Assembly (NCBI GenBank): GCA_022826825.1
Contig: JAJDUD010000027.1
Coordinates: forward strand, 1,050-65,049
Direction: 5' to 3'
DNA length: 64,000 bases
DNA from: Acidobacteriota bacterium
GTDB lineage: Bacteria > Acidobacteriota > Vicinamibacteria > Marinacidobacterales > Marinacidobacteraceae
Positions 7,449 through 36,532 of this stretch are shown in pieces. Under the pieces are notes generated by a model. It did not search any database. It saw only the letters and a list, made by a program, of their open reading frames with translations, and was not told the DNA's origin. A program made the translations under genes and the position numbers. Every line of letters starts with the position of its first letter. Position 1 is the stretch's first letter.

Positions 7449-7608
7449 TTCTCCGCGTCCTCCGGTCCGGAGTGTTGTCGCCTCGCGTTCGGAACGGTCG
7501 GCGAGTCCATCGGGGCTCGAGAAGCCGCGTCGGACTCACGATGCGGGTGCACCGTGCCATCGACGCTGGTTTCGCGCTCCCGCGCGATGCCGGCCAGAGG
7601 CCGGCCCG

Positions 7609-7867
7609 GTTGCTGTGAAAACGCAGTCCGGCGGGTCGGCCGAGCGCCTTGATGGCGACGCCGGCTTGGAACGCCGACCTCCGGGCGGCACCGCGCTGCG
7701 TGACCGCGCAGCGCACGGCCCGGCGCCGAGCTGCGGGATGGTTCTCTCCCGCGGTGCAACCGGGCGGAAGGGACGCGCCCAGGTCTCTGTCGCCCAGGAC
7801 GACGTGCGGCACGTCGCCCGCGGGCCTTCGGCCCGCTGTGCCGACCGGAGGTCGGCGTTCCAAGCCG
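7609..7867. mobile_element. Family-1 MITE/REP-like element, copy A. It starts gttgctgtgaaaacgcagtccggcgggtcggcc and carries the 31-bp hairpin unit ccggcttggaacgccgacctccgg(g/t)cggcac in both orientations
   Basis: It is ~85-90% identical over ~260 bp to 27308..27570. The hairpin units are at 7670-7700 (forward) and 7836-7866 (reverse). The distal end (to ~7990) is degenerate. Confidence 0.65.
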
Positions 7868-8016
7868 TTACCGCCATTTTCATGCCCGGCGGGGTGCGCA
7901 GGAGGACGCGCGCAGGCGCGTTTCTCCCGGTGGGGGCTCCAAGCCGGGGCTGCCATCACGGGGTTCGGCGGATCGGCGAGTCTGCCTTCTCGTCGCCACG
8001 ATTTGGCGTCGCCGTC

Positions 8017-9639: not shown

Positions 9640-10692
9640 ATGCGCTCAAGGCGACTCATCCAGGCCGTGGACCTCCACGCCGCCGGCGAGCCCGGACGGG
9701 TCATCGTCGGGGGCGTCCTCGACGTGCCGGGCGAGACGATGTTCCGGAAGATGCAGTACCTCGAGCGCCACGCCGACGGGATCCGGAAGCTCATGCTCCG
9801 GGAGCCCCGCGGATATCCGGCCGCCAACTGCAACCTGGTGCTGCCGCCGACCCATCCCGACGCCGACGCGGGGTTCGTGATCATGGAGCAGACCGAGTAC
9901 CCGCCGATGTCCGGAACGAACACCATCTGCACGGTCACCGCGCTCATCGAGACCGGCATGGTGGCGGCCGTCGAGCCGCTGACCGAACTCACCCTGGAGA
10001 CGCCCGCCGGACTGATCCAGGTGCAGGCGAGCGTGGACGGCGGCAAGGTCACCCGGGTCACCTTCGAGAACGTGCCCGCCTTTCCGGTCCACCTGGGGGC
10101 GAAGGTGGAGATTCCCACCTTCGGCGAGGTGGAGGTGGACGTCTCCTGGGGCGGGATGTTCTACGCGATCGCCGACGCGGCCCGCTTCGGGCTCCGGATC
10201 GTCCCGGAGCACGGGCGGGAGCTGGCCCGGGTGGGGGCGATGGTGAAGCAGGCGGCGCGCGAACAGCTCGAGGCGGTGCATCCCGAGAACCCCGAGATCC
10301 GGCAGGCGAGCATCGGCGAACTCACCGGACCCTTCGACCCCGAAACCCGGACCGCCGCGAACGCGGTCTCGGTCGCGGTCGGCGACCTCGACTGGGACCG
10401 CCCCGAGACCTGGACCGGTGCGCTCGACCGCTCCCCCTGCGGGACGGGAACGTCCGCCCGGATGGCCTGCCTCCACGCACGGGGCCTGCTGGGAATCGGC
10501 GAGGACTTCCATCACCTCGGTCCGGTCGGCACCGAGTTCGTGGGACGGCTGGTCCGCACCACCACCGTGGGCGGGGTGCCGGCGGTGGTGCCGACGATCA
10601 GCGGGACCGCCTGGATCACCGGGACGGCGCAGTATTCCGTGGACCCGGGGGATCCCTTCCCGGAGGGGTTCACGGTCGGGGACATCTGGTAG
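9640..10692 (+). CDS. Proline racemase family protein (4-hydroxyproline epimerase / trans-3-hydroxy-L-proline dehydratase-like)
   Basis: 350 aa. It contains the family motif SPCGTGTSARMA and an overall PrdF/HypE-like layout. It starts 10 bp after the CRTAC1 stop, with a GGGAGAAG ribosome-binding site. Confidence 0.75.
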   Translation: MRSRRLIQAVDLHAAGEPGRVIVGGVLDVPGETMFRKMQYLERHADGIRKLMLREPRGYPAANCNLVLPPTHPDADAGFVIMEQTEYPPMSGTNTICTVTALIETGMVAAVEPLTELTLETPAGLIQVQASVDGGKVTRVTFENVPAFPVHLGAKVEIPTFGEVEVDVSWGGMFYAIADAARFGLRIVPEHGRELARVGAMVKQAAREQLEAVHPENPEIRQASIGELTGPFDPETRTAANAVSVAVGDLDWDRPETWTGALDRSPCGTGTSARMACLHARGLLGIGEDFHHLGPVGTEFVGRLVRTTTVGGVPAVVPTISGTAWITGTAQYSVDPGDPFPEGFTVGDIW

Positions 10693-10715
10693 GCGTCACC
10701 CGGGATTGGCGGTGG

Positions 10716-10765
10716 GAGTTTCGCTGGCCGCCGGCCGGCGATGCCGGTCTGAAGACCGGCGCTCC
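10716..10765. repeat. Family-2 repeat, solo right arm (gggagtttcgc...gcgatgccggtctgaagaccggcgctcc)
   Basis: It matches the right arm of the complete element at 18240..18458 and the arms at 39964 and 42691. Confidence 0.6.
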
Positions 10766-10839
10766 TCCCGGCGCTGCGGCAAGCCGCATAAAATGTCCCG
10801 TTGCCCATCGCGGCAGCAGCAGGAGGGCTCTCCACGGCC

Positions 10840-12897
10840 ATGGTAAAGATGATTCGTTCTTCTGTCGGCAGGCGTTCTGACCGGCTGGTGTTCTTTGGCG
10901 CGCTCGCGTGCGCCGGGCTCTTGTTCGCCGGGTCCGCCGCGGCGCAGGATCCCGCGGAACTCGTGGTGGATCCGCCCGAGCTGACGCTCGAGGTCGGAAC
11001 AACCGCGCAGCTCACCGCGACCGTCCGGGACGCGGCCGGCAACGCGCTCGAGCGCGGCGTGGTGTTCTTCTCGCGGGCCCGGCGCTACGTGGGGGTGAAC
11101 CCGGCGGGGATGGTGGAAGCCCACCGTCCCGGCGAGCACACCCTGATCGCCATGGTTCCGGCGGACCCCGGCGCCATGGACCGGCGCGCCGAGCCGGCGC
11201 TGATGGTCGAGATTCCGGTGACGGTGCCGTGGCCGCCGCTCGCGAGCGTCGAGATCGCGGCGCTTCCGGGCAATCTCTACGCCGGGACCTCCCTGCGGGT
11301 CACCGCCACGGCCACGGACACCTCCGGGGCCGAGCGCAAACCCGACTTCGCGTGGTCGTCGAGCGACTCCGACGTGGCGACGGTCAGCCCGCACGGGGTC
11401 CTGATGCTCCACGGCGAGGGGTCGGCGACGATCTCCGCGAGCGCCGAGTCCGCCAGCGGCGACGCCACGGTCCGGGTGAGCGCCAATCCGGCGGTCCGCC
11501 TCGAGGTCTCCGCTGCCGAGGAAGAGGTTCGCACCGGCGACGTGGTCTGGTTCGAGGGGCGCGCCCTCGACGCCGGCGGCAACGAGGTTCCCGACTTCCC
11601 GATCCAGTACGCGGTCTCGACCCGGACCCCGGACACCCTGGTGGCGCCCGGCGCGGCCGCCTTCGTGGAGCCGGACGGCGCCTTCGTCGCCGAGCGGCCG
11701 GGCCTCCACACCGTGGTGGCCGCCGGGGGCTCGCTCACCGCCCGGGAGACGATCCGTGCGGTCGGCCGCAACCTGAAGAAGGACTGGGAGATCGTGGGCC
11801 GGGGTCCGGTGCGCGACCGGCACACCTCGGACCTGTGGGTCTGGGAGGGTCTCGACGGCCGCGACTACGCGATCACCGGGACGTGGGGCGCCGACGGGCA
11901 CGCCTACTTCTGGGACGTGACCGATCCGTCGAGCATCCACCTCGTGGACACCGTCCGGGTGGACGCCCGCACCGTGAACGACGTGAAGGTCTCGCCCGAC
12001 GGCAAGTTCGCGGTCATCAGCCGGGAAGGCGCCTCCAACCGGCGGAACGGGCTGGTGGTCCTCGACGTGGCGAACCCCACCGACGGGGTGAAGATCATCG
12101 CCCGCTACGACGACCAGTTGACCGGCGGCGTCCACAACACGTTCGTGGCCGAGAACCACATCCTGGCGCTCTCCGCCGGGCGGCGCTACGACATCCTGAA
12201 CGCCGAGGATCCCGAGAACCCCTACCGGGTGGGACGCTTCGAGCTCGACACTCCCGGCCACGGCATCCACGACGTCTGGGTGCAGGACGGCATCGCCTGG
12301 TCCTCGAACTGGACCGACGGGGTGGTCGCGGTGGACATCGGCGGCGGCGGCAAGGGCGGCGCCCCCAACAACCCCGTGATGATGGGCAGCTTCAAGTACC
12401 CGAACGGCTGGAACCACGCCGGCTTCCCCTACCGGAGCCAGTCCACCGGCAAGATGCTGGTGTTCGCCGGCGACGAGAACTTCCCCTGGGGCTTCGACCC
12501 CGAGGGCAAGCTCCCGGACCGGGCGGCGGGCTGGGTCCACATCGCCGAGTGGGATGAGGACGGCGGGATCGGCCGCGAGGTGGCGCGCTACCAGGTCCCC
12601 GAGGCCGGCACCCACAACCTCTGGATCGAGGACGACATCATGTATGTCGGCTACTACAACGGCGGCCTCCGGGTGGTGGACGTCTCCGGCGAGCTGCGCG
12701 GCGACCTCTACCAGCAGGGCCGGGAGATCAGCTTCTTCGAGCCGGCCGATCCCGAAGGCTTCAAGCCCAACGCCCCGTTCGTCTGGGGCCCGCAGCCTTT
12801 CAAGGGCACCATCTTCTTCACCGACTTCAACTCGGGCCTCTGGGCCGTCCGGCTCGTGGATCCCGAGACCCCGCGCAACATGGGGGAACCCAACTGA
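10840..12897 (+). CDS. Secreted Big_2 (bacterial Ig-like) + LVIVD-repeat beta-propeller protein, paralog 1
   Basis: 685 aa. A signal peptide is followed by Big_2-like segments (TATVRDAAGN..., ATISASAESASGDATVRV) and then LVIVD repeats (NGLVVLDVANP, GGLRVVDVSGE). It is ~55-60% identical to paralogs 2-4. Confidence 0.7.
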   Translation: MVKMIRSSVGRRSDRLVFFGALACAGLLFAGSAAAQDPAELVVDPPELTLEVGTTAQLTATVRDAAGNALERGVVFFSRARRYVGVNPAGMVEAHRPGEHTLIAMVPADPGAMDRRAEPALMVEIPVTVPWPPLASVEIAALPGNLYAGTSLRVTATATDTSGAERKPDFAWSSSDSDVATVSPHGVLMLHGEGSATISASAESASGDATVRVSANPAVRLEVSAAEEEVRTGDVVWFEGRALDAGGNEVPDFPIQYAVSTRTPDTLVAPGAAAFVEPDGAFVAERPGLHTVVAAGGSLTARETIRAVGRNLKKDWEIVGRGPVRDRHTSDLWVWEGLDGRDYAITGTWGADGHAYFWDVTDPSSIHLVDTVRVDARTVNDVKVSPDGKFAVISREGASNRRNGLVVLDVANPTDGVKIIARYDDQLTGGVHNTFVAENHILALSAGRRYDILNAEDPENPYRVGRFELDTPGHGIHDVWVQDGIAWSSNWTDGVVAVDIGGGGKGGAPNNPVMMGSFKYPNGWNHAGFPYRSQSTGKMLVFAGDENFPWGFDPEGKLPDRAAGWVHIAEWDEDGGIGREVARYQVPEAGTHNLWIEDDIMYVGYYNGGLRVVDVSGELRGDLYQQGREISFFEPADPEGFKPNAPFVWGPQPFKGTIFFTDFNSGLWAVRLVDPETPRNMGEPN

Positions 12898-14050: not shown

Positions 14051-16117
14051 ATGACCGAGCAGCACTCGAATTCCTGGACGCGGTTCCTGATCGCGTTCGG
14101 TTGCACCCTCGCGCTGGTCCCGGGACTCGCGCTGGCCCAGGAAGAGGCGGAGGCCGAGGAAGGCCCGCAGCCCGCCGAGCTCATCGTTACCCCGTCCGAG
14201 CTCGAGCTCGAGGTCGGCGACTCGCTGACGCTCGAGGCCGAAGTCCGGGACGGCGACGGCAACCCGATGGACCGCACGGTGGTGTTCTATTCGCGCCGCC
14301 GGCGCTCGGTGGGCGTGAACCCGGCGGGCATCGTCGAGGCCTACCGGCCGGGCGAGCACGTCCTGATCGCCATGGTGCCGAAGGACCCGGAGGACCTCCA
14401 CCGGCGGGCCGAACCCGCAGTGATGGTGGAGATCCCGGTGACGATCCCCAACCCGCCGGTGGCGACGGTCGAGGTCGCGAACCTGCCGGGGCACCTGTAC
14501 GCAGGGACCGAGATCGGCCTGCGCCCGACGGTCACGGACATCTCGGAGGCCGTCCGGCACGACGTGGAGGTCGGCTGGAGCACCGCGGACCCGTCGGTCG
14601 CGAGCGTGGACGCCCTCGGGGTGCTGACCCTGGTGAGCGCCGGGCGGACCACCCTGACGGTCTCCGCCGAGGAGGCTTCGAGCGACACCGCCATCGAGGT
14701 GCTCGCCAACCCGGTCGCCTCGATCACCCTCGGCGGGGCGCCGGCGGAGCCGGTGCGCACCGGCGACGTGGTGTTCTTCGAGGCGAAGGTCACGGACGCC
14801 TCCGGGAACGAGGTGCCCGACTACCCGGTGCAGTTCGCCACCTTCGGCATCCCCGCCGACGGGATCGTGGCCCCGGGCGCGATCGGCCAGGTCGATGACG
14901 CGGGCGCCTTCGTGGCCGAGCGGTCGGGAACCCACACGGTGATCGTGGACGGGTTCAACCACTCGGCGAGCGCGACGGTCGCGGTCGTCGCCCGGAACGT
15001 GCGGAAGGACGTCGAGGTCGTGGGACGGGGCCCCGTCCGCGACCGGCGCACCTCCGACCTCTGGGTCTGGGAGGGCACCGACGGCCGGGACTACGCCGTG
15101 ACCGGCACCCACAGCGCCGACGGCCACGCCTACTTCTGGGACGTCACCGACCCGTCGGCGATCTCGCTGATCGACACCGTGCGGGTGGACGCCCGGACGG
15201 TGAACGACGTCAAGGTCTCGGAGGACGGCAAGTTCTGCGTGATCAGCCGGGAGGGCGCCTCGAACCGGAAGAACGGCCTGGTGATCCTCGACGTCAGCGA
15301 CGTGCAGAACGGCATCGAGGTGATCGCCCGCTACGACGACCAGCTCAGCGGCGGCGTCCACAACGTCTTCATCGCCGAGGACCACATCTACGCGCTCTCG
15401 GCGGGCCGGCGCTACGACATCCTGAACGCCGAGGACCCGACGAACCCGTACCGGGTGGGACGCTTCGAGCTGGACACCCCCGGCCACTCCATCCACGACG
15501 TGTGGGTGGCGGACGGGATCGCCTACTCCTCCAACTGGAACGACGGGATCGTCGCGGTGGACGTGGGCGGCGGCGGCATGGGCGGTGCGCCGAACAACCC
15601 GGTGATGCTCGGAAGCACCCCGTACCCGAGCGGCTGGAACCACGCGGCGTATCCCTACCGCAGCAAGTCCACCGGCAAGTTCCTGATGATCGGCGGGGAC
15701 GAGGCGTTCCCGTACCAGTTGATGGAAGGGCCGCGAGCCCCGCGCCGGGCGGCCGGCTGGATCCACATCTTCGAGTGGGACGAGTGGGACAACCCCAAGG
15801 AAGTGGCCCGCTACCAGGTGCCGGAGGCGGGAACCCACAACCTGTGGGTCGAGGACGACATCCTCTACATCGCCTACTACAACGGCGGCCTGCGGGTCGT
15901 GGACATCTCCGGCGAGATGCGCGGCGACCTCTACCGCCAGGGGCGCGAGATCGCCATGTTCCGCCCCTTCGATCCCGAGACCGTCAAGCCGAACACCCCC
16001 TTCGTCTGGGGGCCGCAGCCCTACAAGGGCCACATCTTCATCGCCGACAACAGCTCGGGCCTCTGGGCGGTCAAGCTCGTGGACGCCGAGCCGCGCAACC
16101 TTGGTGAACCGCACTAG
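14051..16117 (+). CDS. Secreted Big_2 + LVIVD beta-propeller protein, paralog 2
   Basis: 688 aa. It is ~85-90% identical to paralogs 3 and 4, with a GGGAGG ribosome-binding site upstream. Confidence 0.75.
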   Translation: MTEQHSNSWTRFLIAFGCTLALVPGLALAQEEAEAEEGPQPAELIVTPSELELEVGDSLTLEAEVRDGDGNPMDRTVVFYSRRRRSVGVNPAGIVEAYRPGEHVLIAMVPKDPEDLHRRAEPAVMVEIPVTIPNPPVATVEVANLPGHLYAGTEIGLRPTVTDISEAVRHDVEVGWSTADPSVASVDALGVLTLVSAGRTTLTVSAEEASSDTAIEVLANPVASITLGGAPAEPVRTGDVVFFEAKVTDASGNEVPDYPVQFATFGIPADGIVAPGAIGQVDDAGAFVAERSGTHTVIVDGFNHSASATVAVVARNVRKDVEVVGRGPVRDRRTSDLWVWEGTDGRDYAVTGTHSADGHAYFWDVTDPSAISLIDTVRVDARTVNDVKVSEDGKFCVISREGASNRKNGLVILDVSDVQNGIEVIARYDDQLSGGVHNVFIAEDHIYALSAGRRYDILNAEDPTNPYRVGRFELDTPGHSIHDVWVADGIAYSSNWNDGIVAVDVGGGGMGGAPNNPVMLGSTPYPSGWNHAAYPYRSKSTGKFLMIGGDEAFPYQLMEGPRAPRRAAGWIHIFEWDEWDNPKEVARYQVPEAGTHNLWVEDDILYIAYYNGGLRVVDISGEMRGDLYRQGREIAMFRPFDPETVKPNTPFVWGPQPYKGHIFIADNSSGLWAVKLVDAEPRNLGEPH

Positions 16118-16130
16118 GGGACAACGAACC

Positions 16131-18188
16131 ATGAACCGGACACTGCACCTTCATCCCTTGCCCGTGGCGGTTGCCGCGCTTCTGCTGCTCGCCTTCCCGG
16201 CGTTCGCCCAGGAGGAAGCCGAGGAGACGGCCGCGCCCGAGCCCGCTGAACTCGTCATCACCCCGTCCGAGGTGGAACTCGAGGTCGGCGACTCGCTGAC
16301 GCTCCAGTCCGAGGTCCGGGACAGCGAAGGCAACCCGATGGACCGCACGGTGGTGTTCTACTCGCGCCGCCGGCGCTCGGTGGGGGTCAACCCGGCGGGC
16401 ATCGTCGAGGCTTACCGGCCCGGTGAGCACACCCTGATCGCCATGGTGCCGAAGGACCCGGAGGACACCAGCCGCCGGGCCGAGCCTGCGGTCATGGTGG
16501 AGATCCCGGTGACCATCCCCAATCCCCCGGTGGCCACCGTCGAGGTCGTGAACCTCCCGGGCCACCTCTACACGGGGACCGAGATCGGCCTCCGTTCCCT
16601 GGTCACCGACATCTCGGGCGCGGTCCGGAACGACGTCGAGGTGGGCTGGAGCAGCGCCGACCCGTCGGTGGCGAGCGTGGACTCCCTCGGGGTGCTGACC
16701 CTGATGGGCGCCGGCACGACGACGGTCACGGTGTCCGCCGAGGAGGCGTCGAGCGACGCCGCGGTCGAGGTGCTCGCCAACCCGGTGGCCTCGATCACCC
16801 TGAGCGGAGCGCCCGACGACGCGGTGCGGACCGGCGACGTGGTGTTCTTCACCGCGACGGCGATGGACGGTTCGGGGAATGCGGTGCCGGACTACCCGGT
16901 GCAGTTCGCGACCTTCGGGGTCCCGACGGACGGGATCGTGGCGCCCGGCGCCATCGGACAGGTGGACGAGGACGGCGCCTTCGTGGCGGAGCGCACCGGC
17001 ACCCACACGGTGATCGCCGACGGGTTCACGACGTCCGCCAGCGCGACGGTGGCGGTGGTGCCGAGGAACGTGCGCAAGGACGTGGAAGTGGTCGGGCAGG
17101 GCCCCGTCCGCGACCGGCGCACCTCGGACCTCTGGGTCTGGGAAGGCGTCGACGGCCGGGACTACGCGGTCACCGGCACCCACAGCGCGGACGGCCACGC
17201 CTACTTCTGGGACGTCACCGACCCCTCGGCGATCGCCCTGATCGACACGGTGCGGGTGGACGCCCGCACGGTGAACGACGTGAAGGTCTCCGAGGACGGG
17301 ATGTTCTGCGTGATCAGCCGCGAGGGGGCCTCGAACCGGAAGAACGGCCTCGTGATCCTCGACGTCAGCGATCCGCTGAACGGCGTCTCGGTGATCGCCC
17401 GCTACGACGACCAGCTCAGCGGCGGGGTCCACAACGTCTTCATCGCGGAAGACCACGTCTATGCGCTCTCCGCGGGACGCCGCTACGACATCCTGAACGC
17501 CGAGGACCCGACGAACCCCTACCGGGTGGGGCGCTTCGAGCTCGACACCCCCGGCCACTCGATCCACGACGTCTGGGTCCACGAGGGCATCGCGTATTCG
17601 TCCAACTGGAGTGATGGCGTGGTCGCCGTGGACGTGGGCGGCGGCGGCATGGGCGGGGCTCCCAACAACCCCGTGATGCTGGGCAAGACCCCGTATCCGA
17701 GCGGCTGGAACCACGCGGCGTATCCCTACAAGAGCCAGTCCACCGGCAAGTTCCTGATGATCGGCGGGGACGAGGCGTTCCCCTACCAGACGATGCGCGC
17801 GGAGCGGACTCCCGGCCGGGCCGCCGGCTGGATCCACATCTTCGAGTGGGACGACTGGGAGAACGCCCGCGAGGTAGCCCGCTACCAGGTGCCCGAGGCG
17901 GGGACCCACAACCTGTGGGTGGAGGACGACATCCTCTACATCGCCTACTACAACGGCGGCCTGCGGGTGGTGGACATCTCCGGCGAGCTGCGCGGCGACC
18001 TCTACCGCCAGGGGCGCGAGATCGCCATGTTCCGCCCGTTCGATCCCGAGAGCCGGGTCCCGAACGCCCCGATGGTCTGGGGACCGCAGCCCTACAAGGG
18101 CAACATCTTCCTCAGCGACATGAACTCGGGCCTCTGGGCCGTCAAGCTGGTGGATCCCGAGCCGATCAACCTGGGCGAACCGGAGTAA
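16131..18188 (+). CDS. Secreted Big_2 + LVIVD beta-propeller protein, paralog 3
   Basis: 685 aa. It starts 13 bp after the paralog-2 stop. Confidence 0.75.
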   Translation: MNRTLHLHPLPVAVAALLLLAFPAFAQEEAEETAAPEPAELVITPSEVELEVGDSLTLQSEVRDSEGNPMDRTVVFYSRRRRSVGVNPAGIVEAYRPGEHTLIAMVPKDPEDTSRRAEPAVMVEIPVTIPNPPVATVEVVNLPGHLYTGTEIGLRSLVTDISGAVRNDVEVGWSSADPSVASVDSLGVLTLMGAGTTTVTVSAEEASSDAAVEVLANPVASITLSGAPDDAVRTGDVVFFTATAMDGSGNAVPDYPVQFATFGVPTDGIVAPGAIGQVDEDGAFVAERTGTHTVIADGFTTSASATVAVVPRNVRKDVEVVGQGPVRDRRTSDLWVWEGVDGRDYAVTGTHSADGHAYFWDVTDPSAIALIDTVRVDARTVNDVKVSEDGMFCVISREGASNRKNGLVILDVSDPLNGVSVIARYDDQLSGGVHNVFIAEDHVYALSAGRRYDILNAEDPTNPYRVGRFELDTPGHSIHDVWVHEGIAYSSNWSDGVVAVDVGGGGMGGAPNNPVMLGKTPYPSGWNHAAYPYKSQSTGKFLMIGGDEAFPYQTMRAERTPGRAAGWIHIFEWDDWENAREVARYQVPEAGTHNLWVEDDILYIAYYNGGLRVVDISGELRGDLYRQGREIAMFRPFDPESRVPNAPMVWGPQPYKGNIFLSDMNSGLWAVKLVDPEPINLGEPE

Positions 18189-18239
18189 GGAGAACCCTGG
18201 GAGCGCCGGCCAGTCCTCCCGGGTGGGGCCTTCAGACCA

Positions 18240-18458
18240 GGAGCGCCGGTGTTCACACCGGCATCGCGGCCGCAGGCCGCGAAACTCCCGGCGCCATCGC
18301 GCCACATTGCGGGGACCCGAGACGAAGACGGCGAAATCGGAGTGCGCGCGCGCCGTTGTCGTCGCGCCACTCCCTTTGACGGGGGCGCCATGCGGCGAAA
18401 TGAAGCCCGGGAGTTTCGCCCGCTGCGCGGGCGATGCCGGTGTGAACACCGGCGCTCC
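18240..18458. mobile_element. Family-2 MITE-like element, 219 bp, with perfect 28-bp terminal inverted repeats (ggagcgccggtgttcacaccggcatcgc ... gcgatgccggtgtgaacaccggcgctcc)
   Basis: The terminal repeats are exact reverse complements. The interior is also partly palindromic. Related arms occur at 10716, 39964, 42691 and 42999. A family-1 right-end fragment (ctgcatttgcacagcaactgg) follows at 18470..18497. Confidence 0.7.
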
Positions 18459-18572
18459 TCGCCATCCCCGCCGTCGGCCGGGCTGCATTTGCACAGCAAC
18501 TGGCCGGCACCGCCCGCCGCAGGCGGGCGAAATCCCCGCGGTGCCGTCTACACCCGCGGGGCGGTCGCGTCT

Positions 18573-19046
18573 TCAGGTCGTGAACAGGAAGCCGAAGACC
18601 GCGATCAGCACCGTGATCAGGAGGGCCAAGGCGCCAAACAGGATCTGTACCTGAGCCTTCAGCCCATCCAAACGGGCGGCGATGACGTCCAGCTTGCGGT
18701 CGCGTTCCGCGAGCAGCTCGCCATGGGCGGCGACGGTATCGGTCAGCTTCGCGACGGCTTCCGTCAAGGCCTCGAGCTTCCGATCCTGTGCGTCGAACCG
18801 CTGGCGCATCTCCAGCAGGAACGGCTGAAGCTGCGGGGTAAGGGCTTCGGAAACCACGGCGCGGATCCGCTTTTCCGCAGTATAGGCGACGGGGGCGTCG
18901 AACCCGGCCTCCAACAGAGTGTGGAAGAGGGCGCCGTTGGGCGCGCCTTTCGAAGACGGCATGTCTGCTGTGGGGGCGCGCGCGTCCGGCGGCGGCTGGG
19001 ACCTCTCTGGTCCGGGGGTAGGTGGCTGCGGGTCGGTCTCGGGCAC
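18573..19046 (-). CDS. Hypothetical protein, Pro-rich N-terminus, coiled coil and C-terminal TM helix
   Basis: 157 aa, ending ...LKAQVQILFGALALLITVLIAVFGFLFTT. It sits between LVIVD paralogs 3 and 4. Confidence 0.4.
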   Translation of the reverse strand: MPETDPQPPTPGPERSQPPPDARAPTADMPSSKGAPNGALFHTLLEAGFDAPVAYTAEKRIRAVVSEALTPQLQPFLLEMRQRFDAQDRKLEALTEAVAKLTDTVAAHGELLAERDRKLDVIAARLDGLKAQVQILFGALALLITVLIAVFGFLFTT

Positions 19047-19222
19047 CGGGAACTCCTTCGGAAATGGGCTGTCGGAAGACGCGGGTGTCTTCCCCTACTT
19101 CTCCAGACGCAATTCCGGCCCGAAAATTCCCGCTGCGCGGAGGTTTGTGGAAAAGTCGGAGTGAAGATGGCTCAGGCGGCGGGGCGGGCGTATATTCCCG
19201 AGCGTCGAGGGACCGCACGACC

Positions 19223-21277
19223 ATGACCCGAACCTTTCGTTTCCATCCCATCTCCCTTGTGGCCGCCGCACTGCTCCTTCTCGCCTTCCCGGCGTTCGCG
19301 CAGGAAGAAGAGGAGGCGGCCGGCCCCGAGCCCGCCGAACTCGTCATCACCCCGAGCGAGCTGACGCTCGAGGTGGGGGCGACGGCGACCCTCGAGGCCG
19401 AGGTCCGCGATGACGACGGCAACGTCATGGACCGCACCGTGGTCTTCTTCTCGCGCCGGCGCCGTTCGGTGGGCGTGAACCCCGCCGGGATCGTGGAGGC
19501 CTTCCGGCCCGGCGAGCACACCCTGATCGCCATGGTGCCGCGGGACCCCGAGGACACCGACCGGCGGGCCGAACCCGCGGTGATGGTGGAGATCCCGGTC
19601 ACGATCCCCAACCCGCCGGTGGCCACCGTCGAGGTGGCCAACCTGCCGGGCCATCTCTACGCCGGCACCGAGATCGGGCTGCGTTCGACGGTCACCGACA
19701 CCTCGGGCGCGGTCCGCAGCGACGTGGAGGTGGGCTGGAGCAGCGCCGACCCGTCGGTGGCCGGCGTGGACGCCCTCGGGGTCCTCACCCTGACGGGCGT
19801 GGGGCGGACGACCGTCACCGTCACCGCCGAGGAGGCGTCCGGCGACACCGCGATCGAGGTGCTCGCCAACCCGGTTGCCTCCATCACGCTGACCGGGGCG
19901 CCGGCGGACGCGATCCGCACCGGCGACGTGGTCTTCTTCGAGGCGCAGGTCACCGACGCCTCCGGGAACGAAGTTCCCGACTACCCGGTCCAGTTCGCGA
20001 CGCTCGGGATTCCCGCGGACGGGATCGTGGCGCCCGGAGCCATCGGCCAGGTGGACGCGGACGGCGCGTTCGTCGCCGAACGGTCGGGGACGCACACCGT
20101 GATCGCCGACGGGTTCACGAAGTCGGCGAGCGCCACGGTGGCGGTTACGTCCCGGAACGTGCGAAAGGACGTCGAGATCGTGGGGCAGGGCCCGGTCCGC
20201 GACCGCTACACCTCCGACCTCTGGGTCTGGGAGGGCACGGACGGCCGGGACTACGCGGTGACCGGCACCTGGGGCGCCGATGGCCACGCCTACTTCTGGG
20301 ACGTCACCGATCCCGCGGCGATGTCGCTCATCGACACGGTTCGGGTGGACGCCCGGACGGTGAACGACGTGAAAGTCTCGGAGGACGCGAAGTTCTGCGT
20401 GATCAGCCGGGAAGGGGCCTCCAACCGGCGGAACGGTCTCGTCATCCTCGACATCAGCGACCCGCAGAGCGGGGTCCAGGTGATCGCCCGCTACGACGAC
20501 CAGCTCACCGGCGGGGTCCATAACGTCTTCATCGCCGAAGACCACATCTACGCACTGTCGGCGGGGCGGCGCTTCGACATCCTGAATGCCGAAGACCCGA
20601 CGAACCCGTACCGGGTGGGCCGCTTCGAACTGGACACGCCCGGCCACTCGATCCACGACGTGTGGGTGGAGGACGGGATCGCCTACTCCTCGAACTGGGA
20701 CGACGGCATCGTCGCGATCGACGTGGGCGGCGGCGGCATGGGCGGCGCGCCCAACAACCCGGTCATGCTCGGCAGCGCGCCGCACCCGAGCGGCTGGAAC
20801 CACGCGGCGTATCCCTATCGGAGCGAGTCCACCGGCAAGTTCCTGATGATCGGCGGGGACGAGGCGTTCCCGTACCAGACGATCGGGGAATCGGACACGC
20901 CGGACCGGGCCGCCGGCTGGATTCACATCTACGAGTGGGACGAATGGGAAGACGCCCGCGAGGTGGCGCGCTACCAGGTGCCCGAGGCCGGAACCCACAA
21001 CCTGTGGGTCGAGGACGACATCCTCTACATCGGCTACTACAACGGCGGCCTGCGGGTAGTGGACATCTCAGGCGACCTGCGGGGCGACCTCTACCGGCAG
21101 GGACGGGAGATCGCGGTCTTCTGGCCGCAGGACCCGGAGAGCTTCATCCCCAACGCGCCCATGGTCTGGGGGCCGCAGCCCTACAAGGGTCACATCTTCG
21201 TCGCCGACCACCACTCGGGCCTCTGGGCGGTGAAGCTCGTGGACCCGGAGCCGGTGAACCTGGGAGAGCCGCAGTAG
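19223..21277 (+). CDS. Secreted Big_2 + LVIVD beta-propeller protein, paralog 4
   Basis: 684 aa, starting MTRTFRFHPISLVAAALLLLAFPAFAQEEEE. It is ~85-90% identical to paralogs 2 and 3. Confidence 0.75.
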   Translation: MTRTFRFHPISLVAAALLLLAFPAFAQEEEEAAGPEPAELVITPSELTLEVGATATLEAEVRDDDGNVMDRTVVFFSRRRRSVGVNPAGIVEAFRPGEHTLIAMVPRDPEDTDRRAEPAVMVEIPVTIPNPPVATVEVANLPGHLYAGTEIGLRSTVTDTSGAVRSDVEVGWSSADPSVAGVDALGVLTLTGVGRTTVTVTAEEASGDTAIEVLANPVASITLTGAPADAIRTGDVVFFEAQVTDASGNEVPDYPVQFATLGIPADGIVAPGAIGQVDADGAFVAERSGTHTVIADGFTKSASATVAVTSRNVRKDVEIVGQGPVRDRYTSDLWVWEGTDGRDYAVTGTWGADGHAYFWDVTDPAAMSLIDTVRVDARTVNDVKVSEDAKFCVISREGASNRRNGLVILDISDPQSGVQVIARYDDQLTGGVHNVFIAEDHIYALSAGRRFDILNAEDPTNPYRVGRFELDTPGHSIHDVWVEDGIAYSSNWDDGIVAIDVGGGGMGGAPNNPVMLGSAPHPSGWNHAAYPYRSESTGKFLMIGGDEAFPYQTIGESDTPDRAAGWIHIYEWDEWEDAREVARYQVPEAGTHNLWVEDDILYIGYYNGGLRVVDISGDLRGDLYRQGREIAVFWPQDPESFIPNAPMVWGPQPYKGHIFVADHHSGLWAVKLVDPEPVNLGEPQ

Positions 21278-23368: not shown

Positions 23369-25348
23369 TCACTCCCCCGCGGGGTATTCGATGTCGGTGA
23401 CCAGAAACTCCTCGAAGAAATCGAGCATGTCGTGGAGCTTGTCGATCGTGTTCTGCCTCCCGTAGACGTAGTACCCCTCACCCGGATACGCCTTGTAGCG
23501 CACGATCTTGTAGTGCTGGTCGAGCTTGCGGGCGAAGTTCAGCGCGGCCTGCGGCTGGTCTTCGCGCATCCGCCAGCCGGCCGCCACGCCCTCGCCCTGG
23601 ATCACGAAGGTCGGCGTCGTGACCTCGTGCGCCTTCAGGATGGACGAGCTGTTGAGGTACGTCTCGCGGTTTTCGGGATACGGGCCGAGTTCGTACTCGA
23701 CCAGCTTGATGTGCTGGAGCTCGTGGACCGTGGAGTGGAACTCGGTCATGTCGCCATAGCCCGACAGCGAGATGGCCGCCTGGAAGACGTCGGGGGCGAA
23801 GGCGACCGCCGCCATGGTCATGATCCCGCCGTAGCTGGTCCCGGTGACCCCGATCCGGTCGGGGTCCACGTCGGACCGGCCCTTCAGGTAGTCCACCCCG
23901 GCGAGGACGTCCTCGAGGTCGCAGTGCCCCCAGCACTCGTTGTTGAGGTCCTCGAAGGCGAGGCCGTAGCCGGAACTGCCGCGGATGTTCGGCATGAGCA
24001 CGACGTAGCCGCGCTGGGCGAAGAAGTGGACCTGCTGGTGCCGCCGGAACTGGTCGTCGAACTGGGACGTGGGTCCGCCGTGGATCCAGACCACGCCGGG
24101 GAAGCGTTCGCCGGGCGCCGCGTCCGGCGGCGTGTGCACGTAGGCCTCGATGGTGAGGCCGTCGGTGCTCGGGTAGCGGATCTTTTCGGGGAGCTCGACG
24201 CGGGGCTCGGCGTCCGCGCCGATCTCGCTGTGCGCGAGCGCGCTCTCTCCCGAGGCGAGGTCGAGCACGAAGAGTTCCGCGGGGCGCGCCGGGGTCTCGA
24301 AGGTGTAGCTGATCCGGGTCCCGTCGGGCGACCACTCGGGACGGAGCGCCGCTCCGGTCTCCCGCTCCACGAGCGTCCGGCCCCCGGACCCGTCCACCGC
24401 CGCCAGCCGCAGGGAATGGACGCCGCCCCGGTTCTCGGTGTAGCTGACCCAGGCGCCGTCGGGCGACCAGCGGGCGTCGCTCTGGTCGTGGTCCGCAGCC
24501 GCCAGCGGCCGGGGCTCACCCCCCGCGCGCGGCGCGATCCAGAAGTTCAGCCAGCCGCTGCGCTGGGAGCGGAAGAGCAGGTGCTCGCCGTCGGGCGACG
24601 GCTGGGCGGCGCCGAACGCCCGGCCCGCGCGGTAGTCGAAGAAGCCGGTGTCCGCGATCACGGTGCGCGGATTCCGGCCGTCGGGGGTGACCTCGATCAC
24701 GTCGTGGTCCACCCAGCGGTCGTCCATGCGCACGTAGAAGAGCGCCCCGGAGTCCGGGGCCCAGCTCGGATACCCCTCGTAGAGCGGGTCGCTGGTGAGC
24801 CGGTGCACCTCGCCGCCGGGGACCGACACCTTCCAGATGTCCATGGTGCCGAACCGGTCGCCGGAGAACGCGATCCAGGCGCCGTCCGGGGACCAGGCGA
24901 GCCCGTTCGCCCGCGCCGAGAGCCGGGTGAGCCGCCGGTCCGTACCCTCCTCGGCCGACCACAGGTAGATGTCCGGCGCGCCGTCACGGTCGGTGGTGTA
25001 GGCGACGAAACGGCCGTCGGGCGACCAGACCGGCTGCGGAGCCCCGAGCGATCCCACCCCGCTGAGCGCCAGGTCCCCGGTGAGCACCCGGAACGAGCCG
25101 TCCCCGGGGTCCACGCCGGCGAGGTCGCCCCCGGCCGACACGAAGGTGATCAGGGACCCGTCCGGCGCCCACTGGGGCGAACGGCTTCCCCCGACCGCGG
25201 CGCGCAGGTCTACGAGTTCGGCGGCGCCGATCGGGCCGGTGAGCTCGTCGGCCGTCCCGGACGGCGAGCCGCCTCCCTCCAGGGCGCACGCGAGCCCCGC
25301 GGCGAGCGCGCACCCGGCTGCGACGGCAAGAAATCGGTGCTGTTTCAT
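23369..25348 (-). CDS. S9-family serine peptidase (prolyl oligopeptidase/dipeptidyl-aminopeptidase-like) with an N-terminal TolB-like beta-propeller
   Basis: 660 aa, starting at the minus-strand ATG 25348 (MKQHRFLAVAAGCALAAGLACA signal). The propeller repeats are WSPDG-type. The catalytic domain reads GVTGTSYGG (GxSxGG) ... HGGP. The long N-terminal extension in ORF 23369..26878 is rejected. Confidence 0.8.
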   Translation of the reverse strand: MKQHRFLAVAAGCALAAGLACALEGGGSPSGTADELTGPIGAAELVDLRAAVGGSRSPQWAPDGSLITFVSAGGDLAGVDPGDGSFRVLTGDLALSGVGSLGAPQPVWSPDGRFVAYTTDRDGAPDIYLWSAEEGTDRRLTRLSARANGLAWSPDGAWIAFSGDRFGTMDIWKVSVPGGEVHRLTSDPLYEGYPSWAPDSGALFYVRMDDRWVDHDVIEVTPDGRNPRTVIADTGFFDYRAGRAFGAAQPSPDGEHLLFRSQRSGWLNFWIAPRAGGEPRPLAAADHDQSDARWSPDGAWVSYTENRGGVHSLRLAAVDGSGGRTLVERETGAALRPEWSPDGTRISYTFETPARPAELFVLDLASGESALAHSEIGADAEPRVELPEKIRYPSTDGLTIEAYVHTPPDAAPGERFPGVVWIHGGPTSQFDDQFRRHQQVHFFAQRGYVVLMPNIRGSSGYGLAFEDLNNECWGHCDLEDVLAGVDYLKGRSDVDPDRIGVTGTSYGGIMTMAAVAFAPDVFQAAISLSGYGDMTEFHSTVHELQHIKLVEYELGPYPENRETYLNSSSILKAHEVTTPTFVIQGEGVAAGWRMREDQPQAALNFARKLDQHYKIVRYKAYPGEGYYVYGRQNTIDKLHDMLDFFEEFLVTDIEYPAGE

Positions 25349-25522
25349 GACCCCGGCTCCTCCCGGCCGCGGTGCGCGCGACCGGAACACAGGACGGAGA
25401 CTACTGGATGCGCGCCGCGGTCGCTGATGCGGGGACGGCCTCACAGTCGGTAGGCTCTCCTTTCCAATCGAAGCTCCCGCGGACGGGTCCCGAGACCCGC
25501 CGCAAGACCAGGAGGAGACAGC

Positions 25523-26794
25523 ATGTTCCGAAACCGGACCGGCGCGGTCTGCGCCACTCTCTTCACCCCCTTGCTGCTGCTCGGGGCCTGCGCCCCGACC
25601 GAGGAGGTCCCGCAGTCGACCGCCACCGTATTCGAGGGCGCGACCGTCATCGTCGGTGACGGCAGCGACCCGATCGAGAACGGCGTGTTCGTCATCGACG
25701 GTGACAGGTTCGTCGCCGTCGGCGCCGCCGGCGACGTGATGGCGCCCGAGGGCGCCGCACGGGTGGACCTCGCCGGCAAGACGGTGATCCCGGCGCTCCT
25801 CGACACCCACGTGCACCTGCGGGTGGACCGCGAGGGCCTGATCGACGACCTCCGGCGGCGCGCCTACTACGGGGTGGGCGCCGCGATGAGCCTCGGCCAC
25901 GACGACGGCGACGCGGCCGCCGCCGTGCGGGAAAACCCGGTGCCCGGCGCGGCGCTGGCGCTGACCGCGGGCCGCGGCATCACCCGGCCCGAGCCGGGAC
26001 GTTCCGAGGTCCCCTACTGGATCGACACGCCGGAGGAAGGCCGCGCTGCAGTCCGGGAAATCGCTGCCGCGAACGTGGACATCGTCAAGATCTGGGTGGA
26101 CGACCGCGGCGGCCAGTACGAGAAGGTGACCGCGGACCTCTACGGCCCGATCATCGAGGAGGCGCATGAGCACGGCCTGCGGGTGACCGCTCACATCTTT
26201 ACGCTCGAGGACGCCAAGGGGCTGCTGGAGGCCGGGGTGGACTCGTTCGCCCACAGCGTTCGGGACATGGACGTGGACGACGAGTTCGTGGCGATGGTCC
26301 AGGAGCGGCCGAACGTGGTCCTGATGGCGAACATGGGCGCCCGCGGCGCCTACGAGGACATGAGCTGGCTCTCGGGCACCCTGAGCGGCGAGGCGCTCGA
26401 GGCGGCCCAGGCCGCCCACGAGGAACGGCCCGAGGCGCACGAGTCGTTCGGCATCCAGGCGCGCAACCTGGTCCGGCTGCACGAGGCCGGGATGAAGATC
26501 GTCATGGGCACCGACGGCAACGGCGGCTGGCGGCCCCACATCGAGATGCGGGACATGGTGGAGTCCGGGATGAGCCCGCACGACGTGATCGTCGCCTCGA
26601 CCGGCGAGGCGGCGGAGTTCCTCATGCTGCACGACACCGGCACCGTCGAAGCCGGCAAGAGCGCGGACTTCGTGGTGCTCGGATCGAACCCGCTGGACGA
26701 CATCATGAACACCCGGGACATCGAGTCCGTGTACCTCCGGGGCGACGAGGTGGACCGGGCCGGGCTGAGCGCCGGCTGGGTCGGCGGGCAGTAG
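25523..26794 (+). CDS. Amidohydrolase-family metal-dependent hydrolase, probable lipoprotein
   Basis: 423 aa. The lipobox-like motif is LLLLGACAP. It has the DTHVHL metal-binding motif and an amidohydrolase-1-like C-terminus (ADFVVLGSNPLDDI). Confidence 0.7.
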   Translation: MFRNRTGAVCATLFTPLLLLGACAPTEEVPQSTATVFEGATVIVGDGSDPIENGVFVIDGDRFVAVGAAGDVMAPEGAARVDLAGKTVIPALLDTHVHLRVDREGLIDDLRRRAYYGVGAAMSLGHDDGDAAAAVRENPVPGAALALTAGRGITRPEPGRSEVPYWIDTPEEGRAAVREIAAANVDIVKIWVDDRGGQYEKVTADLYGPIIEEAHEHGLRVTAHIFTLEDAKGLLEAGVDSFAHSVRDMDVDDEFVAMVQERPNVVLMANMGARGAYEDMSWLSGTLSGEALEAAQAAHEERPEAHESFGIQARNLVRLHEAGMKIVMGTDGNGGWRPHIEMRDMVESGMSPHDVIVASTGEAAEFLMLHDTGTVEAGKSADFVVLGSNPLDDIMNTRDIESVYLRGDEVDRAGLSAGWVGGQ

Positions 26795-26804
26795 GCGACC
26801 GGCG

Positions 26805-27236
26805 ATGAAGCACGCGCACACCGTCAGTTGGGCGATCTTCGCCCTGCTCGGCGCCATCACCATCGTGGTCTCGCTCACCTCGCTCAGCGCCGCCTACCTG
26901 AACCCGGACGCCGACCTGATCGCCGGCCGGTTCACCCCGGCCGAGCTGTCGGACGGCGACCCCGAGGTGGCGGCTGCGCTCTCCGCGCGGCGGGGCACCG
27001 CGGCCGCGTTCGGCCTCTCCTACGGGATCCTGCTGTTCGGAATCGCGTGGGGCCCCTACCGGCGGCGGGGCCGCCTCTTCAAGTGGCTGCTCATCGCCAG
27101 CCTGGTGAACGCGGGCGTCATCCTGCTCCGCGCGCCGGTGCTGGGGGTCGGGCTCGGGCTCGTGACCGCGTTCGTTCCGCTCGGATTGATCGTCATCGCC
27201 GCGGCGCTCGGGGTGATGGCGCGCCGCCAGGCCTGA
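26805..27236 (+). CDS. Hypothetical small membrane protein
   Basis: 143 aa with 3-4 predicted TM helices. Confidence 0.4.
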   Translation: MKHAHTVSWAIFALLGAITIVVSLTSLSAAYLNPDADLIAGRFTPAELSDGDPEVAAALSARRGTAAAFGLSYGILLFGIAWGPYRRRGRLFKWLLIASLVNAGVILLRAPVLGVGLGLVTAFVPLGLIVIAAALGVMARRQA

Positions 27237-27285: not shown

Positions 27286-27727
27286 CACCGGCTTGGAACG
27301 CCGGCCAGTTGCTGTGAAAATGCAGTCCGGCGGGTCGGCCGAGCGTCTTGATGGCGCAGCCGGCTTGGAACGCCGGCCTCTGGCCGGCACGCGCTGCGCG
27401 ACCGCGCAGCGCACGGCACGGCGCCAACCTGCGGGATGGTTCTCTCTCGGTGCAAACGGGCGGAGGGGACGCTCCCGGACCTCTGTCGCCCGAGACGACG
27501 AGCGGCGCGTCGCCCGCGGGCCTTCGGCCCGCTGTGCCGACCCGAGGTCGGCGTTCCAAGCCGTACGCGCCACGGGGCGGTTCAGCCCTACGCCGTTGCG
27601 GCCCTGCGGGCCGCGTGCCGACCGGAGGTCGGCGTTCCAAGCCGGCTGCGCCATCACGGCTGTTGGCCGACCCCGCAGGATTGCATGTTCACAGCAACTG
27701 GCTGGAGGCCGGCGGTCCCAGCCGTTT
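27286..27727. mobile_element. Family-1 composite MITE-like element, copy B, with ~45-bp imperfect terminal inverted repeats (cggcttggaacgccggccagttgctgtgaaaatgca ... tgcatgttcacagcaactggctggaggccggcggtcccagccg) and three internal 31-bp hairpin units
   Basis: The ends are reverse complements of each other, as seen in the sequence. The hairpin units are at 27363, 27525 and 27618. The interior is ~85-90% identical to 7609..7867. Confidence 0.65.
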
Positions 27728-35754: not shown

Positions 35755-36267
35755 ATGAGTCGAAAGAAGACCGCCAGGAAGAAACGCCGGTTGCGCTCCG
35801 CCGGAGCGCACGGGGGAGGCTTCCGCAACGAGCAGGTGCTTTCGGAGAACCGGAGGGCGCGGCGGAACTTCGTCATCCTCGAGCAGTTCGAGGCGGGCAT
35901 CGCGCTCACCGGCGCCGAGGTGAAGTCCTGCCGGGCGGGCGGGGCGAACCTTAAGGACGCCTACGGCCGCGAGCGGAACGGCGAGATCTTCCTCGTGAAC
36001 TGCCACATCGCCCCCTACGTGAACGCACCCGCCGACCAGGGGAACCCCGAGCGGAACCGGAAGCTCCTCCTCCACGAGGACGAGATGCGCCGGATCGCCG
36101 GCAAGCTCACCACCGCCGGCCTGACGCTCGTGCCGCTCCGCATCCACCTCCGGAACGGCTGGATCAAGGTCCAGGTCGCCCTTGCCAAGGGCAAGAGCAC
36201 CCGCGACCGCCGCGAGACCATCCGCCGCCGCGAGGCCGACCGCGAAGCCCGCGAAGCGCTCGGCTAG
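35755..36267 (+). CDS. smpB: SsrA-binding protein SmpB
   Basis: 170 aa. The core reads NRRARRNFVILEQFEAGIALTGAEVKS...LLLHEDEMRRI...KGKSTRDRRE. It has an Arg/Lys-rich N-terminal extension. Confidence 0.8.
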   Translation: MSRKKTARKKRRLRSAGAHGGGFRNEQVLSENRRARRNFVILEQFEAGIALTGAEVKSCRAGGANLKDAYGRERNGEIFLVNCHIAPYVNAPADQGNPERNRKLLLHEDEMRRIAGKLTTAGLTLVPLRIHLRNGWIKVQVALAKGKSTRDRRETIRRREADREAREALG

Positions 36268-36286
36268 GGAAAGGGGAGGCGGCGCG

Positions 36287-36437
36287 CCGGCTTGGAACGC
36301 CGACCTCCGGTCGGCACGCGCGGTGCTCCGCACCGCGCACGTCACAACCGCCCCCGGAAACGGTGGCTCTCACCTCGGCGTGGAGCGCAAGAGCGGAGGC
36401 GGCACACCGGCTTGGAACGCCGACCTCCGGTCGGCAC
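36287..36437 (+). repeat. Two direct copies of the family-1 hairpin unit (gaggcggcRcRccggcttggaacgccgacctccggtcggcac) separated by a ~90-bp spacer
   Basis: The units are at 36287-36317 and 36407-36437. Each contains the 7-bp stem gccgacc-tcc-ggtcggc. They lie between smpB and the S9 peptidase gene. Confidence 0.7.
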
Positions 36438-36532
36438 CGCTGCGCGAAGCGCAGCGAGGGCGCGGACGCCCACCGGCATCCAGGGCGCGCTCCGTAGAAT
36501 CGGCCCGGTCCCACGTCGCCGGGAGGTATCCC

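Follow-up and report, generated by a model that had tools for sequence, protein, structure and literature searches.

A probable REPIN-like doublet of double-hairpin modules in the intergenic DNA of marine Vicinamibacteria

Repetitive extragenic palindromes (REPs) and their REPIN doublets have been described for the most part in Proteobacteria and a small number of other phyla, and the usual REP is one hairpin of 20-40 nt. The bacterial interspersed mosaic elements (BIMEs) of Escherichia coli consist of alternating Y and Z REPs with other short motifs and are bound by IHF, gyrase and Pol I, while the Correia elements of Neisseria have inverted repeats like those of insertion sequences (ISs) and a TA target duplication. 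REPINs are REP doublets that form hairpins and go with RAYT (TnpA-REP) transposases (PMC3116915, PMC3733652, PMC6006769). Within REP families, head-to-head (HH) dimers predominate, heterodimers occur, and copies lie between unidirectional and convergent open reading frames (ORFs) near 3' ends (PMC3733652). REP, REPIN and BIME repeats show a mosaic association with other motifs and have a single cognate RAYT elsewhere in the genome, and the two described REP superfamilies are defined by GT[AG]G or CGTC at the hairpin foot (PMC3733652, PMC6006769). REPtron-like systems with a class 3 TnpA-Y1 are described from Acidobacteria and Planctomycetes, with ~600 copies in Solibacter usitatus and hairpins that have a CnGA foot and a weaker structure (PMC6006769). 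The subject here is a 219-bp element at positions 18240-18458 of a 64-kb stretch (the window; 68.5% G+C) of contig JAJDUD010000027.1 from a member of the Acidobacteriota. This element is probably a REPIN-like HH doublet of a 50-nt, double-hairpin, REP-like module within a mosaic, BIME-like superfamily of marine Vicinamibacteria.

A pattern scan for copies elsewhere covered 185,579 species, each represented by a single genome, and gave at least 68 eight-kb blocks; the 68 listed are termed loci (L001-type labels), and with the window they amount to ~600 kb, less than 10% of any genome. Like REPs and REPINs, the modules are high-copy, extragenic and palindromic, and occur as singletons, as doublets (mainly HH, with a conserved spacer) and in clusters. 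They also lie between unidirectional and convergent genes near 3' ends, lack target-site duplications, keep stem variants by compensatory change, and form long-lived, diverged populations within one lineage. Unlike REPs and REPINs, they have an acidobacterial host and no cognate RAYT in the ~600 kb sampled. As in E. coli BIMEs, each gap can hold a mosaic of hairpin subfamilies (A-type, B-type and long forms) with 21-nt and 24-nt motifs, and the doublets resemble the Y/Z arrangement in being obligate heterodimers (19/19); the sequences, however, are unrelated, and the variable part is the whole second hairpin. The class 3 REPtron-like systems (PMC6006769) likewise have acidobacterial hosts, atypical high-copy hairpins without GTAG, and a REPtron-like rather than IS-like character, but in a comparison by description alone the CnGA foot is not evident in the modules, and the sampled DNA showed no class 3 gene. 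Correia elements and the ERIC/IRU repeats (enterobacterial repetitive intergenic consensus/intergenic repeat units) share with the family a build of 120-250-bp, non-coding, imperfect palindromes that are intergenic, multi-copy and transcribed with their neighbours; unlike Correia elements, the dimers described here have no duplication, and their arms are autonomous double-hairpin units. By analogy, the module family appears to work, and to be organised, like REP, REPIN and BIME repeats.

Architecture of the 219-bp element

The first-pass annotation had described a 219-bp element at 18240-18458 with perfect 28-bp ends, and these are indeed exact reverse complements (18240-18267, GGAGCGCCGGTGTTCACACCGGCATCGC, and 18431-18458). 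The 28-mer, allowing three mismatches or fewer, occurs four times in the window versus 0.00 expected from 100 dinucleotide-preserving shuffles. The inverted repeat is longer than 28 bp, reaching 53 nt at 89% identity (18239-18291 and 18407-18459, with 115 nt between the arms), and when six window copies are compared the arm proves to be an independent 50-nt module, not a 28-bp end. The module reads, in order, GGAGCG, hairpin 1 (CCGGTnT-TC-AnACCGG), CATC, hairpin 2 (GC, stem, loop, stem, GC), and GAAACTCC. A covariance model built from the module alignment (R1; window threshold E < 1e-5) supplies the scores given below for the features of the gap around the element, 18189-18572:

18200-18238, + strand: truncated long-form module abutting the dimer, made of GGAGCGCCGG, the 21-nt motif CCAGTCCTCCCGGGTGGGGCC (18210-18230) and TTCAGACC
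18240-18458, no strand: HH dimer of two modules and a 119-nt spacer, the 219-bp element of the earlier annotation
18240-18289, + strand: left module (78 bits, E = 1e-22; folds at -20.7 kcal/mol, z = -5.2), with GGAGCG at 18240-18245, hairpin 1 at 18246-18261, CATC at 18262-18265, hairpin 2 (GCGGCC GCA GGCCGC) at 18266-18280, and GAAACTCCC at 18281-18289
18290-18408, no strand: dimer spacer, a conserved imperfect palindrome in the 13-dimer alignment (CGCCAT..CGCCACATTGCG ... GGCGAAA ... GCGCCATGCGGCGAAATG)
18409-18458, - strand: right module (73.5 bits; folds at -20.7 kcal/mol), reading on the + strand GGGAGTTTC at 18409-18417, hairpin 2' (GCCCGC TGC GCGGGC) at 18418-18432, GATG at 18433-18436, hairpin 1' at 18437-18452, and CGCTCC at 18453-18458
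18473-18542, + strand: degenerate module (26.4 bits, E = 3e-6) whose hairpin 1 houses a 24-nt motif (18480-18503, a - strand copy of CCAGTTGCTGTGAAAATGCAGTCC), followed by CACC, hairpin 2 (GCCCGCC GCA GGCGGGC) and GAAATCCCC

The gap therefore holds three items (the truncated long-form module, the 219-bp dimer, and the degenerate module with its 24-nt motif). It is convergent because it is flanked by the stop of an LVIVD/Big_2 gene on the left (16101-18188, +) and by the stop of a small reverse-strand ORF on the right (18573-19046), which has no Pfam match and is read as coding from its hydrophobic C-terminal stretch. The long form truncated at 18200-18238 is found complete at L038 4581-4659 and in L053, and its 21-nt motif recurs 13 times in the loci. 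The element had also been suggested to supply promoters or terminators to its neighbours, a suggestion that gained no support, as neither a sigma-70-like promoter nor a hairpin-plus-T-run terminator is predicted in 18000-18800; a transcript-end role of these modules that is independent of a U-tract remains compatible with this result.

Covariation was counted on 103 distinct copies, from the window and other genomes, for a named structure. Hairpin 1 is paired in 99.1% of cells, with double-sided changes at two pairs, and hairpin 2 in 97.1%, with double-sided changes at five of seven pairs and GC, CG and UA pair types at identical positions. The covariation score was 0.213 versus 0.061 in shuffles (0 of 500 reached 0.213), and it fell to 0.024-0.065 when the pairing partners were slid by 1-3 columns. 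Since hairpin 2 was unconstrained by the patterns used to collect copies, its covariation is no selection artefact. An outer GGAG/CTCC helix seen in single-sequence folding was dropped for want of real covariation support (84% paired; double-sided change at one of four pairs, from one sequence; broken by subfamilies). The alignment has 17 invariant columns, hairpin 1 is flanked invariantly by GGAGCG 5' and CATCGC 3' (GATG and CGCTCC on the other strand), and the modules are much better conserved than the spacers (median spacer identity 61%). Each intact module, taken singly, folds at about -20.7 kcal/mol (z about -5), whereas 42977-43027, a diverged copy, folds poorly alone.

As single-stranded DNA (ssDNA), the whole of 18240-18458 folds at -95.3 kcal/mol (z = -9.9), with the hairpin-1 regions pairing across the arms and both hairpin 2s folding locally. 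In dimers whose arms have unlike variants of hairpin 1, pairing from arm to arm is disrupted (CC, GG) yet the local hairpins are intact, so that the target of selection is the module and not the long inverted repeat. Among non-Watson-Crick hairpin cells, G-T exceeds A-C (10 versus 2; counts small and non-independent), a weak hint that the plus strand of the module folds, which would fit a strand-specific ssDNA enzyme or RNA. A strand-specific RNA gene is disfavoured by the palindromic design and by the absence of a preferred orientation. Rfam 15 likewise gives no window matches at gathering thresholds and, by E-value, only sub-threshold noise in 18100-18650, so that the arms do not appear as parts of a structured RNA gene, the possibility that the first-pass annotation had named as fatal to its proposal.

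Hairpin 2 of the right arm differs from hairpin 2 of the left, as it does in all 19 dimers; the two hairpin 1s agree in 12 of the 19. By a hand estimate from class frequencies, the expected proportion of random pairs with a common stem class is ~18%, which gives a probability of ~0.02 for finding none among 19. Thirteen dimers with ~116-119-nt spacers, from three genomes and the window, align end to end; further copies of the 219-bp unit exist elsewhere, and their interior is conserved. The earlier description of a non-coding, multi-copy repeat family stands. The window dimer is 76-84% identical to the HH dimers of other genomes, and its spacer, in which the conserved pairing is partial, is 44-73% identical to the spacers of other copies. 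Over all pairs compared, within and between genomes, the median dimer identity is 74%; non-tandem copies within one genome are at most 87% identical (spacers 70-83%), and there is no sign of a recent burst of copies. The term solo arms, applied earlier to the single copies, suits those that are left halves of dimers running into the spacer, but not others that are complete modules bordered at once by unique sequence.

Occurrence, arrangement and turnover of the modules

R1 detects 16 modules in eight intergenic gaps of the window and 234 in the 68 listed loci, all of which, among the matches listed, come from about eight metagenome-assembled genomes (MAGs) of Vicinamibacteria/Ca. Marinacidobacterium (40 of the 68 blocks on one 4.5-Mb contig). 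The motif is thus not confined to the window, and the superfamily occupies many intergenic gaps in Ca. Marinacidobacterales and relatives. The dispersed arms reported previously were recovered at 10716-10765, 39962-40008, 42691-42740 and 42977-43027 (42.2-77.6 bits), along with ten more window modules (7560-, 7665+, 7806-, 18473+, 23284-, 27364+, 27502-, 27586-, 36291+ and 36411+) that belong to diverged subfamilies, e.g., the B-type (GGAACGCCGACCTCCGGTCGGCAC plus a GC hairpin). All window modules lie outside frames that look coding by codon-position GC and outside adjoining Pfam-supported genes, in line with the intergenic location given earlier, and the peptide GSFARCAGDAG(V/L)(N/K)TGAP is the translation of one arm frame. 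The window DNA is distinct from the genomes of the 68 loci and matches ENA metagenome scaffold ERZ23495295 PANK22-1. Viral contigs gave no module matches, plasmids gave neither module matches nor a parent IS, and the JGI metagenomes gave one weak 17-bit match. Neither the hairpin sequence nor the host genus name was found in the literature searched, which describes no such REP-like family for Acidobacteriota (Vicinamibacteria); the module family of marine Vicinamibacteria is large and previously undescribed.

Gap and pair statistics were taken from strict matches, with genes called by a crude heuristic based on codon-position GC. The modules occur in three arrangements (singletons, HH dimers and tandem arrays). 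Adjacent pairs comprise 26 HH, one tail-to-tail (TT) and 50 head-to-tail (HT) pairs, the last mostly in tandem arrays, and the HH spacer has its mode at 116-119 nt (12 of 26), the spacing of the window element. Modules are present in 22 of the 55 convergent gaps, in 31 of the 183 tandem gaps and in 6 of the 57 divergent ones, and for many of them the distance to a stop codon is 0-54 nt. Where a singleton lies in a tandem gap, it points in the direction of the upstream gene in 12 cases and oppositely in 8. The modules favour gaps at gene 3' ends, without orientation bias. Three tandem arrays lie on contig CBDHFO010000017.1:

L059 965-2154: 15 units of 78 nt
L012 1069-1836: 6 units of 142 nt, with three copies of the 9-nt unit CAGGAGCGC preceding the module 5' end
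L050 2003-3187: 9 units, alternating 112 and 158 nt

The inter-repeat segments are near-identical within each of these arrays, which are therefore tandem duplications, not series of acquired CRISPR (clustered regularly interspaced short palindromic repeat) spacers; they are minisatellite-type amplifications.

Several loci are orthologous between genomes, and they demonstrate how the gaps change. L046 and L060 (97% identity) differ in that the one well-formed module of L046 is an HH doublet in L060, where 92 extra nt stand in place of 5 nt in the 5' half of hairpin 2; they start at a hairpin 2 of donor type and extend as far as the inverted partner's outer end. Compared with L002, L036 contains one more tandem unit, with hairpin-2 types swapped between units, and L015 and L016 share the first module and then diverge in composition. 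In more distant pairs (L024 versus L030/L052; L044 versus L064) the gap content is wholly replaced and non-homologous. Between genomes that are 96-97% identical, clusters differ by replacements, duplications and losses within modules instead of by clean cut-and-paste, a pattern that resembles recombination, gene conversion or template switching from module to module. One module site also has a large indel, with 3 kb in L025 (3542-6603; two tandem HH dimers and ORFs) versus 190 bp with a single module in L057 (1529-1719).

Short motifs are nested within the modules. The 20-21-nt motif CCAGTYCTCCCGGKKGGGGSC, also present in other contexts, lies inside the hairpin-1 stem at the same position in either orientation, giving long-form modules of 77-79 nt. 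The 24-nt motif CCAGTTGCTGTGAAAATGCAGTCC forms the outer inverted repeats of 27301-27705 and appears again at 7606 and 18480(-), with a diverged relative at 42857. On the strength of these nested motifs, the family is a mosaic, like BIMEs. As a tandem pair followed by a conserved CGGCTGACAAGGCGCGTGAGGGAGGA with a Shine-Dalgarno-like end, the 20-nt motif occurs at L020 7440-7560, L046 120-240, and L066 5210-5330 and 5395-5515, with an inverted copy following in two cases; this combination is distinct from the modules and has the look of a conserved leader or regulatory region.

Between inverted modules that are 0.5-1.8 kb apart lies a PIN/Phd toxin-antitoxin pair in L020, and in L015 nothing but repeats. 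In L020 (1435-3258) the modules are 1.7 kb apart and bracket a Phd/YefM-PIN pair and one more ORF; the orthologous region of L010 is just 71% identical. An integron attC reading, raised by this cassette, was rejected on inspection, as the modules are inverted rather than direct, chromosomally dispersed, and without the GTTRRRY core.

Mode of spread and alternative explanations

The 219-bp element is best read as the canonical HH doublet of the module family. The spread and recognisability of such a REP-like family would depend on an enzyme reading hairpins in ssDNA, for which the likeliest candidate would be a Y1 HUH transposase, a RAYT or another, with one gene per genome that lies outside the sampled DNA. 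Homologous or slipped-strand recombination between modules would follow upon spread. At the RNA level, the paired hairpins are probably orientation-independent transcript-end structures, which would stabilise mRNA or attenuate read-through between convergent genes. The differing second hairpins cap the perfect palindrome at ~28 bp, which plausibly keeps the doublet stable in the chromosome.

A number of points weigh against this REP-like interpretation. The hairpin feet are GGAGCG and CATC/GATG, without GT[AG]G or CGTC, and the 50-nt module has two hairpins and conserved linkers, unlike REPs; because the characteristic foot is absent and no RAYT was located in the ~600 kb, the family is not filed in the GTAG or CGTC superfamilies. 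A regular-expression search for the HUH and Y motifs found no Y1/HUH gene in the window and 68 loci, where the best phmmer match to IS200 TnpA or E. coli RayT had E = 4.5; among the matches listed for RayT in the protein collection, only Enterobacteriaceae appear. The copies are old, as their ceiling of 87% identity indicates, and the orthologous loci compared include no clean empty-site/filled-site pair. With no clean insertion or excision found, transposition is therefore only inferred. Finally, the preference for certain gaps rests on crude gene calls.

The alternative that survives best, though it is unlikely, is that the double hairpin has no mobility system of its own and serves the host as a cis-regulatory or RNA element, either as a site for protein binding or as a bidirectional signal for transcript ends that needs no U-tract. 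Recombination and slippage alone would then have multiplied it, and selection would retain it locus by locus. Such an element would explain why both hairpins and the single-stranded linkers are conserved across species while spacers drift, and why copies are enriched at gene 3' ends and in convergent gaps, often tens of nt from the stop. The age of the copies (suggesting long persistence), the recombinational look of the changes between close genomes, and the excess of G-T over A-C mismatches are also in its favour. It fits less well with the absence of bias relative to transcription (12 versus 8) and the lack of Rfam matches and T-run terminators, and hundreds of dispersed, related copies at unrelated loci call for a spreading mechanism. 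Modules are found in divergent (promoter) gaps as well (e.g., 42688-43029), and the nested insertions and long tandem arrays suggest selfish DNA more than tuned elements.

The first-pass annotation proposed a miniature inverted-repeat transposable element (MITE), in the classical sense a deletion derivative of a DDE-type IS that is mobilised in trans through its inverted repeats, here of 28-53 bp, with the solo arms as decayed copies. This explanation is more doubtful still. The terminal inverted repeats (28 bp perfect, 53 nt at 89%), the size of 200-240 bp with a conserved non-coding interior, the outward arms in a fixed orientation (26 HH versus 1 TT), the many copies in several genomes, and the singletons that run on into the dimer spacer, as truncated copies would, are all features that a MITE would share. 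However, target-site duplications are absent from the 19 HH dimers, in which the best flanking repeat is 0-4 nt, as at 2000 random position pairs. No IS with matching ends, whether as parent or otherwise, and no recurrent transposase family was found in the ~600 kb; clustering of all predicted genes gave as recurrent families only AAA_14/DUF4143 ATPases, S9 peptidases and orthologues, and the inverted modules of L020 bracket a toxin-antitoxin pair, no transposase. Near-identical copies are lacking too, so that the active or recently active transposase expected from the earlier annotation finds no support in this DNA. The inverted repeats of a MITE are normally two copies of one sequence, whereas the arms here never share hairpin 2; each is an autonomous, self-folding unit with internal compensatory covariation, which also occurs in tandem arrays and as true singletons. 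The underlying idea of a non-autonomous repeat family was nevertheless right in spirit.

No more probable than a MITE is a third possibility, in which the two-hairpin module is the recognition unit of an undescribed, non-RAYT system and part of an order-wide, vertically kept network of Vicinamibacteria. A lineage-specific protein would then read hairpin 1 and the linkers (GGAGCG, CATC and GAAAC), and hairpin 2 would vary freely provided that it was paired and different between the arms. Hairpin 1 would also be a site-specific target for mini-insertions of 20-24 nt, at the same stem position in either orientation, and the network would consist of bidirectional transcript-end or chromosome-structuring elements. 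A CRISPR-like or other spacer-bearing array can be dismissed with near certainty: although some CRISPR repeats have a 3' part similar to a hairpin with GAAAC after it, the arrays of L059, L012 and L050 are regular and direct, and Rfam gives weak sub-threshold matches to CRISPR-DR28, these matches score 18.7-20.3 bits versus a gathering score of 35, most modules are solitary or inverted, and the near-identical inter-repeat segments refute this reading for all three arrays.

Other modules, neighbouring genes and significance

Apart from the gap of the 219-bp element, the window contains the following modules and composites:

7560-7610 (-), 7665-7721 (+) and 7806-7864 (-): three clustered modules (diverged or B-type); the 24-nt motif lies at 7606-7629
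10709-10768, - strand: singleton (71.5 bits), identical in ENA contig L069
23284-23345, - strand: B-type module (GGAACGCCGACCTCCGGTCGGCAC plus GC hairpin; 25.1 bits, E = 1e-5), family D11
27301-27705, no strand: 405-bp composite palindromic element with outer 34-nt inverted repeats (27301-27334 and 27672-27705) carrying the 24-nt motif
36291-36348 and 36411-36469, + strand: two B-type modules in tandem (29.4 and 35.2 bits)
39957-40013 (arm 39962-40008), + strand: singleton, a GGAACG variant with a shorter hairpin 1 (55.9 bits)
42688-43029, no strand: long HH dimer of modules 42688-42745 (+, 77.6 bits) and 42973-43029 (-, 42.2 bits, diverged)

The 3' end of the singleton at 10709-10768 faces the stop codon of a proline racemase gene (10690-10692), and that at 39957-40013 begins 2 nt past the TGA stop of a ScsC/DsbA-like gene. 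The long dimer lies ~45 nt upstream of the start of a TonB-dependent receptor gene, in a divergent gap, and its ~230-nt spacer holds a copy related to the 24-nt-motif family (42857-42942, repeat family D10). The 405-bp composite encloses the B-type modules 27364+, 27502- and 27586-; copies related to it and to the composite at 7560-7940 occur in L006, L021, L026, L041 and L065.

Four tandem, paralogous + strand genes of ~700 aa (10801-12897, 14051-16117, 16101-18188 and 19022-21277) are 66-89% identical in DNA over the repeat stretches compared, and the two that were tested both have Big_2 and LVIVD domains. Gaps with modules adjoin this array, 10709-10768 on the upstream side of its first copy and 18189-18572 behind the third. 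A 281-nt, 71% inverted repeat (23750-24030 and 37818-38098) is explained by two opposite-oriented paralogous genes, 23369-26878(-), which has PD40 and peptidase S9 domains, and 36182-38488(+); B-type modules lie beside both. Paralogues of an AAA_14/DUF4143 ATPase recur in module-bearing loci from several genomes (window 58581-59834, L034 168-1367, L005 3979-5130, L011 3255-4517, L002, L055 and L058), and three of the seven directly adjoin modules, a proximity that is probably coincidental given that modules are so common. The stretch of ~44000-58000, in which the R1 scan found no modules, has a third-position GC of 0.6-0.8 versus ~0.9 elsewhere and includes a DndB-family gene (46740-47957, E = 2e-129); it may be a horizontally acquired DNA-modification or defence island.

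The modules create many spurious ORFs (…GSFARCAGDAGLKTGAP…) and will break short-read assemblies, and R1 could be used to mask them. The unusual features of the family (two hairpins, the heterodimer rule and stem-specific nesting) do not overturn current understanding of such repeats. The findings would give marine Vicinamibacteria, which are known from little else than MAGs, a well-characterised repeat family that could serve as a lineage marker, and the double-hairpin covariation, differing second hairpins and nesting of the 20-nt motif offer handles on how repeats are recognised and kept stable.

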